This document shows, piece by piece, positions 20,194 to 57,388 of a stretch of DNA of 64,000 nucleotides. Location: the IMG/VR virus record IMGVR_UViG_3300021185_003028; one strand, written 5' to 3'. The stretch's first letter is position 1. Each line of letters starts with the position of its first letter. The notes under the pieces were generated by a model. The model searched no databases. It saw only the letters and a program-made list of their open reading frames with translations, and was not told the origin of the DNA. Origin of the DNA: an uncultured virus (IMG/VR IMGVR_UViG_3300021185_003028) (lineage: Duplodnaviria > Heunggongvirae > Uroviricota > Caudoviricetes). A program made the translations under genes and the position numbers.

Positions 20194-22200
20194 TCAAACC
20201 CCACTTTCAGGGTCGTCTGAGATGCGGTTTAACTGTGCCTCCATCATGGCTTCCCATAGGTCGTCGTCGCCCAATTCGCCTGACTGCGAGGCTGTCTTGA
20301 TTGCTTCTTTGACTTCACGGCGTTCAGCCAATGCGTCTGTCGCCGAGTGCTTGGACGAGAACCAAGCGTCACCCTTGAACAGAGACTTGCGGTGCTTAGA
20401 ATCCTTGCCGACGATGTCCCAAAGGAGAGTTCCTTTGCCCGAAGGTCGGAGGTACGATGGCAAAAATAGCGAACGCCAAACATTCGACTGTTCCTTCGTC
20501 TTGCATCCTATCGAGCGTAGTAGGTTGCTGTCTTCACCCTTGAGGGGGAATGCGGACAAAGCGGCTTCGGCTTTTGAAATCACATCGTCGAACTCGACTG
20601 CGAGAGATGGTAGATTGTTGGAAGCCGCTTCGATAAACAGTGGTGCGAGAGCGTAGTCGTCCATCAACCCCTCACGGGACTTGACCAATTTGTAGGACTT
20701 CTTGCCGCCACCACGACCGCCACCACGACGACCGACCTCAATCAGACCTGCGTCTTCAAGGGTTGGCAAGTGCTTCTCCTTGAGTGCGTTCTTGCTGATG
20801 GTGAATGCGTGCAGTCCGAGCCATTGTAGAATGTTGTCCTCCGTTAGTGGACGCTTGGCCTCTGACATGGCGTTCATCTGTTGGTACACCGTCCATGAGT
20901 CGTCAGGGACACCCGACAGGCTCGCTCTCAAGACCAAGTCACAGAGAAGTAGGCCGATGACATTGTCCTCGATTGAGGATAGCAGGAACTCATTGCCATG
21001 AGCGTCTTTTTGAACGACTCGTTGGTTCTGATGCAAGAGCGTCACGGCGTCGATAATCGACAGCACCTTGCCAATGTCACGCTGATGTTGAGCGTTGCGA
21101 GCAGGGAAAAAATCAACCATGAGTGGAGCGAATATGTTGCGGACACGGTATCGCTTCAAAGACAGCATGGCGGCTTGGAGCATTTTCAGGTCAGGGTGGA
21201 CTGTGAATTGTTCGGGTCGAGCCTTAGCGAGCAAGGTGTTCTTGACCACAGAATTGACCTTCTCGACTGTGGTGTCGGGTGTCATAATCAATTGACGGGT
21301 GATTTGCTCTTGCTCGTTTGGATTGCGAGTCGTCAAAGTGATGAATGATGGTCGTCCCCTGATGATGAAGTCTCGTGTCTCTATCTCGCCCGATAACTCG
21401 TTCTTGATGGGCGTTTTCCAAACAAGTTCGTCATCGTCCCCCGACATAATCGGTTTCATTTTCTTGATGAACGCATAGGATTCGTCCTTCTCCAAGACGA
21501 CGATGCAACGGCCATCGACATTCACGATGAAATTGCCGTCCTCATCGACCTCGTCATAGTCGTACTTGAGAGCCTCTTTTGAAGCACCTGCAAGCACCAT
21601 AATCATGCTCTTAGGGAAGCCGTTGCGGGCCGTTAGCGTCATGTATGTCTTGCCGCTCGCTGACTGCCCAATCATCTCAAGGTTGAGCGGATTGTCGGTC
21701 TTACAGGACAGGAATACGAGGAATGTGAGGAGTAGGTTTGCATCGTCGCCGACGAACGGAGTCTCACGGCTCTCGTGGAGAATCCTGTTAATTTTATCGA
21801 CCAAGTGACGCTGTCCCAAGAACTCCTTGATTGACTTTTCTTCAATCTCTCCGTAGGTTGATGTTTCACCCAACAGGGCATCAATCTCGGCGTCTTTCTT
21901 ATCCTCGATGGTCGCTACGACATAAGTCCCTTCACGGAGGATGACACCTGCTTTCAGGAAGGTTTGCTTGAACTCTTCAATCTCGTCCTTATCGTCACAG
22001 ACTGCCTTAGCCATGCGGGCTATGCTGTGCTGTGAGAGAACATTGACCTTGCCCATTGGCTCTCCACCAATGTCAGCCGAGAACTCCATGCGTCCCTTAG
22101 TCGAAGACAAAAAGGTGAGACGGACAGCCATTTCATTTATTTGAAACAGAAAATCCGAGGAGGATTCTGTCGATTGGTGTACTTGGAAGTCGGGGTTCAT
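20194..22200 (-). CDS. AAA+ P-loop ATPase, putative replicative helicase (divergent MCM-like) with C-terminal wHTH
   Basis: Walker A GQSASGKT, GRPSFITLTT sensor, EQITR, QHQRD; wHTH LPTLEDAGLIEV; replication-class promoter. Confidence 0.6.
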   Translation of the reverse strand: MNPDFQVHQSTESSSDFLFQINEMAVRLTFLSSTKGRMEFSADIGGEPMGKVNVLSQHSIARMAKAVCDDKDEIEEFKQTFLKAGVILREGTYVVATIEDKKDAEIDALLGETSTYGEIEEKSIKEFLGQRHLVDKINRILHESRETPFVGDDANLLLTFLVFLSCKTDNPLNLEMIGQSASGKTYMTLTARNGFPKSMIMVLAGASKEALKYDYDEVDEDGNFIVNVDGRCIVVLEKDESYAFIKKMKPIMSGDDDELVWKTPIKNELSGEIETRDFIIRGRPSFITLTTRNPNEQEQITRQLIMTPDTTVEKVNSVVKNTLLAKARPEQFTVHPDLKMLQAAMLSLKRYRVRNIFAPLMVDFFPARNAQHQRDIGKVLSIIDAVTLLHQNQRVVQKDAHGNEFLLSSIEDNVIGLLLCDLVLRASLSGVPDDSWTVYQQMNAMSEAKRPLTEDNILQWLGLHAFTISKNALKEKHLPTLEDAGLIEVGRRGGGRGGGKKSYKLVKSREGLMDDYALAPLFIEAASNNLPSLAVEFDDVISKAEAALSAFPLKGEDSNLLRSIGCKTKEQSNVWRSLFLPSYLRPSGKGTLLWDIVGKDSKHRKSLFKGDAWFSSKHSATDALAERREVKEAIKTASQSGELGDDDLWEAMMEAQLNRISDDPESGV

Positions 22201-22239
22201 GCCTCTCACCACGATGCACCCACCTTCTTAACCATCTCG

Positions 22240-22400
22240 TTTAATTCGATACTTTACCTTCCCTACATTATACACACACACAATAACTAACATATATGTC
22301 TGTAAGACCCTAAGTCAGGGTCAATCGAAACCCATAACCCCCCGTAGGGGGGTTAAAGATTCGGACGATTCGGACAAATCGAAGGTGAAGGACTCGAAAA
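22240..22400. other. Candidate replication origin
   Basis: Non-coding; AT-rich tract with palindrome ACATATATGT (22290-99), GACCCT/AGGGTC, perfect TAACCCCCC-GTA-GGGGGGTTA (22335-55), tandem GATTCGGAC x2; just upstream of the helicase gene. Confidence 0.4.
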
Positions 22401-22420
22401 CCTATCGGTGTTCCAAACCT

Positions 22421-22639
22421 TCATGCGTTGTTTTTGCGAAAAGCCCCAATCATTCTTGCGAAGAATCCTTTGGGTTCGGGCGTTGGTTCATCAAAGTCAT
22501 AACGCTCAACCATACCACCGCATGAACATTGGTCTCCGAACATCGGTCTGATGTTTCCATCTGTGTTATTCTTGATGTATTGGTCTGTGAAGTTCCAACC
22601 GCATCGGGCGCAGGCTATCATGAATCTGTGTTCCGTCAT
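22421..22639 (-). CDS. Small zinc-ribbon protein
   Basis: CARC...CSCG; own promoter. Confidence 0.7.
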   Translation of the reverse strand: MTEHRFMIACARCGWNFTDQYIKNNTDGNIRPMFGDQCSCGGMVERYDFDEPTPEPKGFFARMIGAFRKNNA

Positions 22640-22691
22640 GTTTAATCGTAGGGGTATCACCCATATAAAGGTTTTGATTGCCGATAATATC

Positions 22692-22892
22692 AAAGGAGAT
22701 TGAGAGGGCCGCAGTGCCTATGTTTTAGTCGGGTGCGACCCTCTCGGATTGAGTAAGGTGCGGTGCTCTCCTCTGCGGTTTGGCTATTTGCCTATTCCGT
22801 TGCGTTGCACTTTACTCACCGTATATACGGGGTTGCCCCCGCATTCGACGCTATGGTTAGCGTTGGTGGGCCTTCCACCCACACGGCCTTGT
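22692..22892 (-). ncRNA. Putative ~200 nt structured non-coding RNA
   Basis: Intact promoter with ACAAGG instead of ATG at the predicted start; hairpins include AUGCGGGG-GCAA-CCCCGUAU (GNRA loop, G-U pair) and GAGAGGGUCGCA/UGCGGCCCUCUC. Confidence 0.55.
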
Positions 22893-22971
22893 ATTCTATC
22901 GTAGGGGTGTCACCCATATAAAGGTTTTGGTTGCCGATAGTATTATATAGGGGAGACCCATAGGACTAATC

Positions 22972-23080
22972 AGAGCGAATTGGGGCAATGTCCCCCCTTC
23001 GTTCTTCAATGCGGCAGTCCAATAAACGGCATGATTCGATACTTCGGTATCACGCAGGGGAGTCGTGAAGCCCCTGCACT
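22972..23080 (+). ncRNA. Putative ~110 nt structured non-coding RNA
   Basis: Intact TTATATAGG promoter with no ATG at the start; AGAGCGAA/UUCGUUCU stem, GAUAC-UUCG-GUAUC tetraloop, GCAGGGG/CCCCUGC terminal stem. Confidence 0.55.
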
Positions 23081-23137
23081 CACATAAAGGTTTGAATTGC
23101 CGATAGTATTATATAGGGGTGGCCCATAGGGTAAAAC

Positions 23138-23383
23138 ATGCGCCAAGACACAGCAACCCGCCGCCTAACCAAAAGAGCAAACGACTTCTTAGGAATGTCA
23201 TTCGGTCAATACATTTTAGAGTTCAGTAAAATAATCGAATTGCCAAACGGTGAACCTCACCTGACATTGAATGACAACGCCACTATGCAAAAAGCATTCT
23301 ATGTATGGGTCTCAATTAACGACCGAGAAGCGAAGTTATTGGCTTACCTCGATGACAAAGCGGCTCGTCAGATGGATAACTGA
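23138..23383 (+). CDS. Hypothetical protein; the only credible + strand CDS
   Basis: ATG directly follows TTATATAGGGGTGGCCCATAGG promoter. Confidence 0.7.
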   Translation: MRQDTATRRLTKRANDFLGMSFGQYILEFSKIIELPNGEPHLTLNDNATMQKAFYVWVSINDREAKLLAYLDDKAARQMDN

Positions 23384-25182
23384 TTGGCGAATCGAAGTGT
23401 TGATGCCAAGTCCGCTGATAAGCGGCCGACCTCAAGCGTCATGAACGATGTTTCAGGTGTCATCTCCCAAGAGACAGCGAACAGTCGGTGACGGCCTGCA
23501 ATCCCTTGAGATGATGCAAAGTCCATGACTTCACCTGCTCGCATATCAAACCGCTCAGGCAAACCTTCGACGGTGTATTGCTCCCTTGTTCGACCGACAT
23601 TGGATAACTGCAATCGAGCAAATGTCTCCGCTTGCGTGTCATTCTGTATCGTTGAATCGTGTACCACTCGATGCACTGGTCGCTGTGGAAAGTTCGGAGA
23701 ATCGGCGGTTGGGTACATGTACGATACATTTGCTTTATCGTTCTTGACGATGACCACATTGAAGTTCGTCAAATCACCTTTAGTCTTCTCGATATTGGTC
23801 GCATAGAAGTCTTGCGGTACAGCGGTTCTCGGCAGTCGTCCACCCACGAAGGGGGTCATCGAAGCGTCATCCACTTCGGGCAGTTCCCGAAGGTGAATGT
23901 AGCCCTGTCCGTCGGCATAAATCGTCATCGGCTTTGGTGCTACATTGATGAATCCGAGGACGACTTGAATTGCCTCCAATCTCGTCTTGCCCACGAGCGA
24001 AGTTCCCGACGGGATGGATACATTGCTCAGGGTACTAATGCGGCCGATAGGAGGGGCGTAGGCCGACCCGCCTATGATTTGCTTAATCATGGCCGCCGCA
24101 TCACCCTTTGCTATCGAGGTGTCGGTGACTATGGTTTCATTCGTCAAGAATCCGAGTGCATCGAGGCATGTGATTCTGATTGTCCTCGCTCCTTCTTCTA
24201 TGTCTGAAATGTACCCTGTGAAAATCAACGGAGGATTTGCCCAACCCCTCGGAGTCGCATACGCTTGAATCGTGTCCCCGACTTTGAACATGCCTGCACG
24301 CCTGCCTGCGATTGAGGATATTGACACCGATAGGCTACGGGGTGAATTGAGACGGTGTTCAGAAGCAATCGAGGTTATCCCTTGAATCGGCAACGACCCG
24401 TTGAGAACCACAGTCGGTGCTTGGGGTGTTGCTTCATCCACAGACATTGGCCCGTACACATTCCTGAACATCACCTGTCTCGACCTGACGAAGAACGCCT
24501 TATGCTTCCAACCGTTGCGTAGGCCCGTCAGGCGCATGCGTTTGGGCCTGTTGGTATATTGGAGACCTTCGGGGTTAAAACCGCCGTCAGAGAAGCCCAA
24601 TTTGCCCAAATCGAAGGTCGGAGATGGCAGGATGGTCTGTGGATAATTGCCTTCGGTCGGCCCTGTGGTGAATGAGAATCCACCACGACCGCCACCGCCT
24701 CGGCGATTGACTATGTCGTATTTGTCGGGGAACGGAGATTTGCCGTGATAGTGGTAGCCGAATCCAACCGAGTTCGTTGTCATGTCACCGTGCAAGTGAG
24801 GGTCGAAAGGTCTCGGCGTCGATAGGCTCGTGTAGCAAGTCGTGACCGTCTTATCCAATTTCCATTGTCCGCCGAGTTCGTTTGGAAACGGGATTAGGCC
24901 GAGACCAAAGTCAGGAGGAAAGTGAACGGGTCGCTCCATCAATTCCTTTTCGTCGGCAGTGGCCTGCAACGCTTCGGGAACATCAATGCCTCGGCGTATC
25001 GACTCCTTGCGAGTCTCAGCCCATGTCGTAGCAACCCATCGTGCCACAGCCGTTCTTGGCCGTCGTGGGTCTTGCCCCAATCGTTCAGCCTCGTCAAGGA
25101 GAACCTTCGGTGGCGTGATAATCATGGGGTCATCAGACGGAGCACGGACGATACGAGAGTACCGCTCTGCCTCCTCACTCAT
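23368..25182 (-). CDS. Tail tip/baseplate hub-like protein
   Basis: IFTGYISDIEE..IRITCLDALGFL, IYADGQGYIHL, MRAGEVMDF hub motifs; structural-class promoter. Confidence 0.65.
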   Translation of the reverse strand: MSEEAERYSRIVRAPSDDPMIITPPKVLLDEAERLGQDPRRPRTAVARWVATTWAETRKESIRRGIDVPEALQATADEKELMERPVHFPPDFGLGLIPFPNELGGQWKLDKTVTTCYTSLSTPRPFDPHLHGDMTTNSVGFGYHYHGKSPFPDKYDIVNRRGGGGRGGFSFTTGPTEGNYPQTILPSPTFDLGKLGFSDGGFNPEGLQYTNRPKRMRLTGLRNGWKHKAFFVRSRQVMFRNVYGPMSVDEATPQAPTVVLNGSLPIQGITSIASEHRLNSPRSLSVSISSIAGRRAGMFKVGDTIQAYATPRGWANPPLIFTGYISDIEEGARTIRITCLDALGFLTNETIVTDTSIAKGDAAAMIKQIIGGSAYAPPIGRISTLSNVSIPSGTSLVGKTRLEAIQVVLGFINVAPKPMTIYADGQGYIHLRELPEVDDASMTPFVGGRLPRTAVPQDFYATNIEKTKGDLTNFNVVIVKNDKANVSYMYPTADSPNFPQRPVHRVVHDSTIQNDTQAETFARLQLSNVGRTREQYTVEGLPERFDMRAGEVMDFASSQGIAGRHRLFAVSWEMTPETSFMTLEVGRLSADLASTLRFANQLSI

Positions 25183-27221: not shown

Positions 27222-27479
27222 TCAAACGAAGTGTTTGTATGAATCCCATGTGCCGTCATAAAATGCTTCTTCGACAGCCGAAAGGAGGTTTCTTCGGAAT
27301 CTTCGATATTGTCTTCGTGCATGAGAATTGGCTTTTCGTTCGGTTGAGCCACGACGGGCAGGTATCTGTTCAACCTGTTCTCCGAGAACGAAGAATACAA
27401 GGGATTCTTTCACTTCTTCGGCGATTGCATGTTCGGTGTAGTCCATGTTTGTTAATTCGATGTTGGTGTAGTAAGTCAT
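27222..27479 (-). CDS. Hypothetical protein
   Basis: MTYYTNIE start after promoter plus AGAGGCGAA leader. Confidence 0.6.
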   Translation of the reverse strand: MTYYTNIELTNMDYTEHAIAEEVKESLVFFVLGEQVEQIPARRGSTERKANSHARRQYRRFRRNLLSAVEEAFYDGTWDSYKHFV

Positions 27480-27492
27480 TCTTTTTCGCCTC

Positions 27493-27526
27493 TGTTTAAT
27501 CGTAGGGTGCAGTCCTATATAAAGAT
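27493..27526. repeat. 34-bp exact dispersed repeat (class I promoter), second copy at 39080-39113
   Basis: TGTTTAATCGTAGGGTGCAGTCCTATATAAAGAT is identical at both sites. Confidence 0.9.
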
Positions 27527-48998: not shown

Positions 48999-49057
48999 GT
49001 TATTCGCCTCTGTTCTATCGTAGTAGCCTGTCCTATATAACCGTGTCGGTGAAAGAC

Positions 49058-57243: not shown

Positions 57244-57388
57244 TTGCTTCACTTTCCTTATTTTTTCCTGTGCCGTCCCACCTATATAATCGTTTTTGCG
57301 GTTTCTGTTTGTCCGTGTTATTCGACTGTTGTTGGGTCGGCTACAAATGACCCTATGTGGGCCACCTATATAATACTATCTCACAAAG

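Follow-up and report, generated by a model that had tools for sequence, protein, structure and literature searches.

Introduction

Phages and plasmids encode regulatory and decoy RNAs, among them antisense RNAs that govern copy number or immunity and lie near origins, pseudo-antitoxin repeats, and anti-CRISPR RNAs that mimic repeats. In T4-type phages, promoter-early stem-loops (PeSLs) act as mobile regulatory cassettes: according to the available parts of two reports, units of a promoter and a stem-loop delimit small cassettes, and close relatives differ by the insertion, deletion or replacement of whole cassettes at these units (PMC2839356, PMC4122927). In the haloarchaeal tailed virus HGTV-1, a motif made of a TATA element and an inverted repeat precedes many open reading frames (ORFs) and, in the part of the report available, is likened to PeSLs (PMC3950731). 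Here we describe a locus at positions 22421..23383 of a 64,000-nucleotide (nt) stretch of DNA, hereafter the window, from the uncultured Caudoviricetes virus IMGVR_UViG_3300021185_003028. At its centre, a bidirectional promoter hub of the virus's standard promoter class, class I, faces two segments, RNA-L to the left and RNA-R to the right. The locus is probably a hypervariable accessory island of cassettes that begin with class-I promoters, in which the hub drives RNA-L as a stand-alone structured RNA and likely RNA-R as well. We hold this reading with moderate confidence.

Results

Class-I promoters and the bidirectional hub

A promoter matrix was trained on 15 ATG-bearing sites and then scanned over the window. 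The scan yielded 22 class-I sites, 20 on the minus strand and two on the plus strand (22944 and 23110). The consensus is TTATATAGG(G/T)G...CC.TA.G.T.AAAC, followed by ATG, whose A lies 28 nt past the first T of TATATA, or 22 nt past the box. An ATG occurs at this fixed distance in 17 of the 22 sites, and the corresponding mRNAs are therefore considered leaderless. Two of the other five sites (27521 and 49039) have leaders of 13-14 nt with the form AGAGGCGAA..ATG. These numbers bear out the first-pass annotation of this DNA, which held that most class-I promoters place an ATG 22 nt after the TATA box and that a few have a short leader. The two leaders, on the minus strand at 27478-27521 and 49000-49039, represent a second, leadered type of mRNA with a GAGG box. 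A third ATG-less site, 57372, is a tandem promoter preceding a gene: in 57253-57372 (minus strand), about 80 A-rich nt are followed by a second promoter-like box with a purine-rich leader and then by the gene of a 411-amino-acid (aa) AAA-type ATPase. The remaining two ATG-less sites are the central divergent pair, 22920(-) and 22944(+).

The divergent pair lies within a repeat. A repeat search found one family of three 54-nt copies, spaced by 253 and 166 nt, that contain the 26-nt cores noted earlier; the repeat unit consists of two back-to-back class-I promoters and a spacer. The middle copy (22911..22964), used as the reference, is the bidirectional hub. Its promoters scored 34.0 (minus) and 44.4 (plus) in the matrix scan, and neither side has an ATG at the leaderless position. 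The left copy (22658..22711; 69% to the reference) has a good leftward promoter for a gene encoding a Zn-ribbon protein and a degenerate rightward half. The right copy (23077..23130; 87% to the reference) has a good rightward promoter for an 81-aa ORF and a weakened leftward box. The 23-nt right half is identical in the middle and right copies, for which shuffles expect 0.00 matches. The rightward half of the left copy scored below the scan threshold, as did the leftward half of the right copy. The repeat search and the promoter scan thus recover the layout first proposed, with both TATA boxes in the middle copy and one in each flanking copy. The right copy's leftward box, TTTATGT, may not be dead, since the inferred promoter of one relative has the same form (L022; related loci are designated by L numbers). 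The hub was also found in relatives L005, L009, L012/L013 and L089. As had been claimed, the array is the sole place in the window where the strand switches, the 81-aa ORF being the only plus-strand gene with a class-I promoter.

RNA-L

RNA-L (22695..22892, minus strand) is about 198 nt long, with a predicted start at 22892. This start and that of RNA-R, at 22972, agree with those first proposed. The minus strand of 22695-22893 folds with -80.1 kcal/mol and a z-score of -5.20, and none of 200 shuffles folded as well. In 25 control windows of coding sequence, the mean z-score was -0.26 (standard deviation 1.06; range -1.66 to +2.22). The intervals on both sides of the hub had been described as dense in hairpins, and both are, although RNA-R folds only modestly, with a z-score of -2.29. 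In the predicted fold of RNA-L, a four-way junction (22818-22887), with one T-loop-like and one GNRA-capped hairpin, is followed by a long irregular hairpin (22751-22817) and a terminal hairpin (22701-22746). Tetraloops of the sense strand are GCAA and GAGA.

For comparison, 44 loci encoding relatives of the neighbouring 672-aa protein were gathered. RNA-L occurs in two further sequence variants: that of L005/L007, with 81% identity over 190 nt, and that of L009, in which 45 nt of the middle domain are missing. In the explanation that we favour, the long hairpin would be dispensable. The consensus fold has 59 pairs kept in the three variants, 13 of which show compensatory two-sided changes. 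The variants differ by indels of 1, 2, 2 and 45 nt. Every sense frame of the window copy is interrupted by stops, and the three variants have no open frame in common. The related loci thus provided the covariation for which the first-pass annotation had called, together with indels that break reading frames. RNA-L is a unit of its own, because neither the Zn-ribbon gene nor the 81-aa gene follows it in L005 and L009. Overall, the identification of RNA-L as a structured RNA is well supported.

A possible drawing of hairpin P2 of RNA-L (22865..22883, minus strand) has 5 bp in the stem and a T-loop-like loop of 7 nt, UGGAAGG; one loop base varies across the three variants and the rest is invariant. 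With one N allowed, the P2 19-mer occurs more than 120 times in cellular genomes, with many occurrences per genome. It lies in or beside an Rfam match to group II intron D1-D4 in 14 of 20 cellular loci examined, and in two of those loci it aligns to the first 20 positions of the model group-II-D1D4-4. P2 is thus a building block shared among RNAs; it and the GNRA and UUCG loops speak for a fold that is important as RNA. The 19-mer is multi-copy in Rhizobium, many other bacteria and some archaea (L093-L172). It is also present in the A+T-rich phage contigs L070, L072, L074 and L080, at the T-arm-like position of a tRNA-like sequence with a 7-bp acceptor-like stem, a CUUAAAA loop and a 3' ACCA, in which ARAGORN and Rfam call no tRNA.

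The terminal hairpin

The terminal hairpin of RNA-L (22701..22746, minus strand) has a 12-bp stem, a 1x3 internal loop, 2 bp and a 12-nt loop. Its apical 20 nt, A.CCGACUAAAACAUAGGC.CU, are invariant in relatives save three positions. The motif CCGACT(A/G)AAACATAGGC was found within the same hairpin architecture in six variants: those of the window, L005, L009, L010, L021/L022 and L069. In an ungapped alignment of these six, two-sided changes affect 10 of the 12 stem pairs, and pairing is kept in 98.8% of cells. None of 500 shuffles reached any of the five measures applied, and slid partners paired at 40-49%. G-U pairs of the hairpin occur only on the promoter-sense strand, always downstream of a class-I promoter.

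A covariance model of the terminal hairpin had a single match in the window, of 69 bits. With 44 bits in L023 and 26-28 bits in L017, it also detected diverged terminal hairpins where the long D-type RNAs end. The hairpin of L010 and L022 is on the opposite strand and closes rightward cassettes, beside the stop of the tail gene, which is convergent. L069 is more distantly related (tail protein 44% identical); there, the hairpin follows the stop of a 195-codon open frame by 26 nt, on the same strand and between convergent frames. The close relatives L002, L003/L004 and L011-L014 retain both the 672-aa gene and the origin-like block and lack the hairpin. We infer that the terminal hairpin is a shared 3'-end module and that its loop is a recognition site.

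An exact search of 185,579 cellular genomes for the terminal-hairpin 20-mer found no match. Exact searches for the loop motif returned no new variants from viral contigs and only L069 from metagenome contigs. Within the window, with up to three mismatches, no second or complementary copy of the loop was found beyond one chance-level match. Loop-motif matches in L045, the L048-type loci, L051 and L065 had no fold and were set aside as chance-like. At one edge of L089 (1-60), a predicted leftward, ATG-less hub transcript starts AGAGCGG and runs into a diverged hairpin of the invariant-loop type (loop CCCGACGACAACATAGGC), where the contig ends.

RNA-R

RNA-R (22972..23076, plus strand) is about 105-119 nt long, with a predicted start at 22972, and is predicted to form four hairpins, including GAUAC-UUCG-GUAUC, which places a C(UUCG)G tetraloop on the sense strand. 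Its fold has an energy of -38.0 kcal/mol (z-score -2.29; 5 of 200 shuffles as good), and the antisense z-score is -1.14. An exact 20-mer of RNA-R matched only the window's own lineage. The segment includes a 26-codon ORF (22988..23068, plus strand) with its ATG 16 nt from the predicted start. In the loci with the closest relatives of the 81-aa gene (L089, 96% identity; L012/L013, about 52%), the hub promoter drives that gene directly, without RNA-R; RNA-R is therefore an inserted cassette and not a required leader. RNA-L and RNA-R had been viewed as a symmetric pair. This view did not survive the comparison: the symmetry is an accident of the window's lineage, RNA-R having no relatives elsewhere, a modest fold and a start that resembles a short leader.

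The cassette island in relatives

Within the clade defined by 72% or more identity of the 672-aa protein, the tail gene and the 672-aa gene are separated by an interval of 423-1159 nt. We compared 16 variants of this interval, from relatives 72-100% identical in the flanking 672-aa protein. At least one class-I promoter without a leaderless ATG is present in 14 of the 16, with 20 such promoters in total; the intervals of L002 and L014 contain a small gene only. About nine ORF-less bodies could be told apart by eye and BLAST (RNA-L, RNA-R, and B to H), and the edge of L089 adds another. The bodies are mosaic. Those of type B begin with a common 50-nt 5' module and diverge beyond it. The C body is leftward in L012/L013 and rightward in L021/L022, each time behind a promoter; its closing stem has four compensatory pairs and its sense tetraloops are UUCG and CUCG. 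The C-type cassette and the terminal hairpin thus occur in either orientation with respect to the flanking genes and are always downstream of, and sense to, a promoter. Among 18 cassette segments, the sense z-score was below the antisense z-score in 17 and was -2.2 or less in 16; these segments are not independent, as families repeat, and counted by family the sense strand folded better in 8 of 9.

The borders of the cassettes coincide with the class-I promoter core and a common U-rich, terminator-like element. In L003/L004, an ORF-less segment of about 150 nt replaces the Zn-ribbon gene behind the same promoter. The gene's last ~35 nt remain, and these belong to the U-rich element, which is conserved across all relatives. 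As the first-pass annotation had predicted for promoter-delimited cassettes, the intervals between promoters vary strongly among relatives. More distant relatives (at most 63% identity) have ordinary ORFs in the interval. To judge from their distribution, the cassettes are non-essential and are shuffled between close relatives.

Two further features of the cassette ends were noted. The replacing segment of L003 (493-640) and L004 (5626-5775) is closed by GGAGAACCG/CGGTTCTCC. A unit of about 50 nt (..ATACCGAGAATCCC....GGGCAAAGTTCTCGCTCCCTG..) is found at the ends of rightward cassettes, tandemly twice in L005 (1283-1400) and L006 (1449-1560) and once in L010 (5400-5450); a 1-nt indel between L005 and L006 in this unit breaks any reading frame.

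Searches for expression, families and targets

Contigs from two marine metatranscriptome runs, compared with 22200-23500, cover only 22468-22618, in the Zn-ribbon gene, and 23154-23326, in the 81-aa gene. As assembled contigs show neither ends nor strand, they neither support nor oppose transcription of the RNA segments. The search of Rfam for which the first-pass annotation had called came back negative: Rfam 15 at the gathering threshold gave no match in the window or in 10 related loci, and matches in 22200-23400 at E values up to 10 were at chance level only. ARAGORN called no tRNA gene in the window or in 11 loci, and RF00005 was not matched. Paired with 21 viral 5' regions, neither RNA-L nor RNA-R reached better duplex energies than shuffles, of which 30/60 and 34/60, respectively, were as good. 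Tan1 is an abundant, purine-rich non-coding RNA of the host group, according to the part of the report available (PMC5069720); judged by eye only, it looks unrelated. In the magrovirus papers searched, the words promoter, non-coding, noncoding and intergenic did not occur, and a search of the literature on non-coding RNAs of archaeal viruses found nothing comparable.

Flanking small proteins

The Zn-ribbon gene (22421..22639, minus strand) is leaderless and encodes 72 aa; its last codons run through the conserved terminator-like element. The leaderless 81-aa ORF (23138..23383, plus strand) is the only plus-strand gene, with homologues of 96%, 61-63%, 51-53% and 39% identity. It had been suggested that the RNAs possibly act with these two proteins. 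Patterns of co-occurrence ruled this out as an obligatory partnership: RNA-L occurs without either gene in L005 and L009, L002 has a Zn-ribbon homologue of 85% identity without any RNA cassette, and in L012/L013 and L089 the hub drives the 81-aa gene without RNA-R.

Genome setting

The minus strand carries nearly every long ORF of the window. Searches of the window's proteins against Pfam and PHROGs identified an HK97-type capsid protein, portal, prohead protease, terminase and tape-measure protein, together with a family B DNA polymerase, a clamp-loader-like ATPase, a helicase, a PD-(D/E)XK nuclease and a CobS/CobT-like pair. The available part of one report describes magroviruses, which infect marine group II archaea, as head-tailed and equipped with replication machinery of archaeal type; magrovirus-like viruses are reportedly abundant in surface oceans, and their hosts are uncultured (PMC5434244). 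The window fits a magrovirus-like marine archaeal tailed virus, since these genes, the archaeal-type TATA promoters and the marine relatives agree. A phage record collection, searched with the window DNA and with the 672-aa protein, gave zero matches.

The 672-aa P-loop protein (20194..22212, minus strand), which served as the anchor for collecting relatives, is a putative replication protein. Its sequence had no match in Pfam, NCBIfam or PDB. Look-alike clusters in the Atlas carry PF27228, and one archaeal cluster also carries TrmB-type helix-turn-helix domains. Directly upstream of the 672-aa gene lies a conserved origin-like region (22213..22420), blocks of which recur in relatives. The region is non-coding and has A+T-rich DNA, a CA tract at 22272-22282 and a perfect hairpin at 22335-22355, in agreement with the earlier placing of the array beside an origin-like region.

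Over 22273-23932, a contig assembled from a different sample shares 99.6% identity with the window and has zero differences in RNA-L and RNA-R. Because this independent contig agrees, the array is not an assembly artefact. All six single-nucleotide differences cluster in 57 nt of the origin-like region (22277-22333), where they flank a short inverted repeat.

Discussion

The locus is best explained as an accessory island between the tail gene and the origin-like region in which each cassette begins with a standard class-I promoter. Cassettes move among relatives, are bordered by promoter repeats and fold better in the promoter-sense direction, and the RNA-L variants share covarying pairs and no open frame. 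From these observations we infer transcription, the transcript ends, a partner and a function. The flanking repeats would be partial copies of the hub, brought in with neighbouring cassettes. Some cassettes would carry small leaderless genes, such as the Zn-ribbon and 81-aa genes, and others a compactly folded RNA and no gene. RNA-L would start near 22892 and end in a hairpin whose stem is free to vary and whose 20-nt apical loop is fixed. This 3' hairpin would be a module common to otherwise unrelated cassette RNAs, which in a distant relative also follows a long, gene-like frame. It may close or stabilize the 3' end, and its fixed loop may be where a conserved partner binds; a protein is likelier in this role than a base-pairing target. 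The specific activity would then reside in the variable bodies. RNA-R would be a cassette built in the same way, younger and confined to one lineage, and is probably non-coding as well. Since the cassettes are non-essential, are shuffled between close relatives and occupy the genome's one plastic spot, their most likely role, tentatively, would be in virus-host or virus-virus conflict, as decoy or sponge RNAs, or in the control of replication from the adjacent origin.

Several observations weigh against this explanation. An ATG-less promoter does not by itself imply a non-coding transcript, as 57372 is merely a tandem promoter. The antisense strand of RNA-L (plus strand) also folds well, with a z-score of -3.6. 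The covariation counts of RNA-L come from three related variants and are not counts of independent events, and an invariant loop on a covarying stem is also a signature of single-stranded-DNA recognition sites. RNA-R has no relatives, a modest z-score and a plausible 26-codon ORF with a leader like those of true short-leader genes. One cassette, in L015, shows no excess folding and contains a 44-codon frame with its ATG at +11; it may be a small gene. The RNA-library contigs lie over the small ORFs and not over RNA-L or RNA-R, and the searches of the window, the related loci and the 21 viral 5' regions found no Rfam family, target or partner.

Three other explanations were weighed. It is rather unlikely, in our judgement, that RNA-R is an mRNA in which a short leader precedes the frame of a basic 26-aa peptide (22988-23068), or a recent functionless filler between a duplicated hub and the 81-aa gene. 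RNA-R starts with AGAGCGAA and has an ATG at +16, close to the arrangement of the AGAGGCGAA leaders (13-14 nt) of two real genes, and its confinement to one lineage and a z-score of just -2.29 would suit either version; however, the start codon of the ORF sits in the first hairpin loop and the preceding G-run is paired, the sense strand has the C(UUCG)G tetraloop and folds better than the antisense strand, and RNA-R is identical in two samples that differ at six sites in nearby non-coding DNA. We lean towards an RNA rather than a micropeptide. For both segments, a quite unlikely explanation is that they are 5' untranslated leaders or attenuators transcribed from an upstream tandem promoter, RNA-L leading into the Zn-ribbon gene and then the 672-aa gene and RNA-R into the 81-aa gene, with the terminal hairpin and a U-run forming a regulated terminator. 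Tandem class-I promoters do precede a gene elsewhere in the window (57372), and none of the class-I promoters above threshold is the 672-aa gene's own. Moreover, the leftward cassettes of L003, L005, L009, L012 and L017 point at the 672-aa gene and end at the shared U-rich element, and the hairpin of L069, after a long open frame and between convergent frames, is placed like a terminator. Yet the rightward cassettes (B, F and C-type; L005, L006, L009, L010 and L022) meet the convergent tail gene at its 3' end and have no gene to lead into, the 81-aa gene is leaderless straight from the hub in L012/L013 and L089, and the Zn-ribbon gene follows RNA-L in the window only. Wholesale swapping between near-identical genomes would also be unexpected of leaders.

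We consider it very unlikely that the elements act as DNA, with the hairpins forming single-stranded or cruciform structures of the adjacent origin (priming or nicking sites) and the promoters opening the origin by transcription. The island does adjoin a conserved origin-like region and a putative replication gene, invariant loops on covarying stems resemble the recognition hairpins of rolling-circle replication and transposases, and the terminal hairpin is oriented one way or the other according to its side of the hub. However, the hairpin and cassettes are not essential cis elements, because close relatives that retain the origin-like block (L002, L003/L004 and L011-L014) lack both. The G-U pairs and the UUCG and GNRA tetraloops favour RNA, as does the better folding of the sense strand in 17 of the 18 segments, and a Pfam scan of 47 window proteins found no HUH-type or transposase domain. 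An island of cassettes with RNA-L as a stand-alone structured RNA thus remains our preferred explanation.

A wider proposal is tentative and, taken whole, somewhat doubtful. The cassettes might make up a modular RNA system, with at least nine unrelated structured bodies behind standard promoters, many ending in the same invariant-loop hairpin that would dock one viral or host partner, shuffled between co-infecting relatives at promoter repeats. Such a system would amount to an RNA-based accessory arsenal, providing decoys against host defences or specificity in replication or superinfection. If the cassettes are true RNAs, the one plastic island of these genomes is filled largely with RNA genes, and this accessory content escapes protein-centred annotation. 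The invariant loop would then be a concrete handle for finding the partner, and the defined promoter class would give exact predicted 5' ends, 22892(-) and 22972(+), in magrovirus-like viruses, about whose regulation almost nothing is known.

Parts of RNA-L resemble known RNAs. The 19 nt of P2 match the group II intron hairpin GGGUG(A/G)AAGUCCC, the start of group-II-D1D4-4, exactly with one N allowed. By contrast, the rest of RNA-L matches no group II model at E values up to 10, and there is no intron-encoded protein; the match is a shared building block and not a sign of membership. Domain 1 of RNA-L is like a tRNA in its four-way junction, its 7-bp closing stem, the 5-nt linker at the position of the variable loop and its T-arm-like hairpin. 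It differs in that its other loops are of 4-5 nt and the ACCA loop is not kept in L009, and ARAGORN and Rfam were negative; the tRNA-like reading is a weak lead. The terminal hairpin, with its invariant loop on a covarying stem, is like the single-stranded-DNA recognition hairpins of origins and transposon ends. Unlike these, it is missing from relatives that share the replication module, and no cognate nicking domain was found among the 47 proteins scanned with Pfam.

As predicted promoter-driven small non-coding RNAs in the accessory region of a mobile element, near replication functions and variable between relatives, the cassettes are like the regulatory and decoy RNAs of phages and plasmids. 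They differ from these in that the 64-kb window has no overlapping antisense partner, complementary site or tandem repeat array, and no toxin, reverse transcriptase or Cas gene is adjacent. The closest likeness is in organization, to PeSLs. In both, a short, strong-promoter unit is repeated (here in three 54-nt copies and 22 class-I sites) and flanks small cassettes, and the region is hyperplastic, with relatives gaining, losing and replacing cassettes (here 16 variants of 423-1159 nt). The first-pass annotation knew of no equivalent in archaeal tailed viruses. For promoter repeats this does not hold, given the motif described in the available part of the HGTV-1 report (PMC3950731); for the RNA cargo, the literature search found nothing comparable. 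Unlike in PeSLs, the stem-loop is not in the repeat; it is a separate 3' module with an invariant loop, which occurs once in the window and is absent from RNA-R. The promoters here are of the archaeal TATA type, with one bidirectional unit, and the cargo consists in large part of structured RNA that has no ORF, in place of small genes. Repeated promoters as such were already known; what is new here is the RNA cargo and the invariant-loop hairpin that its members share.

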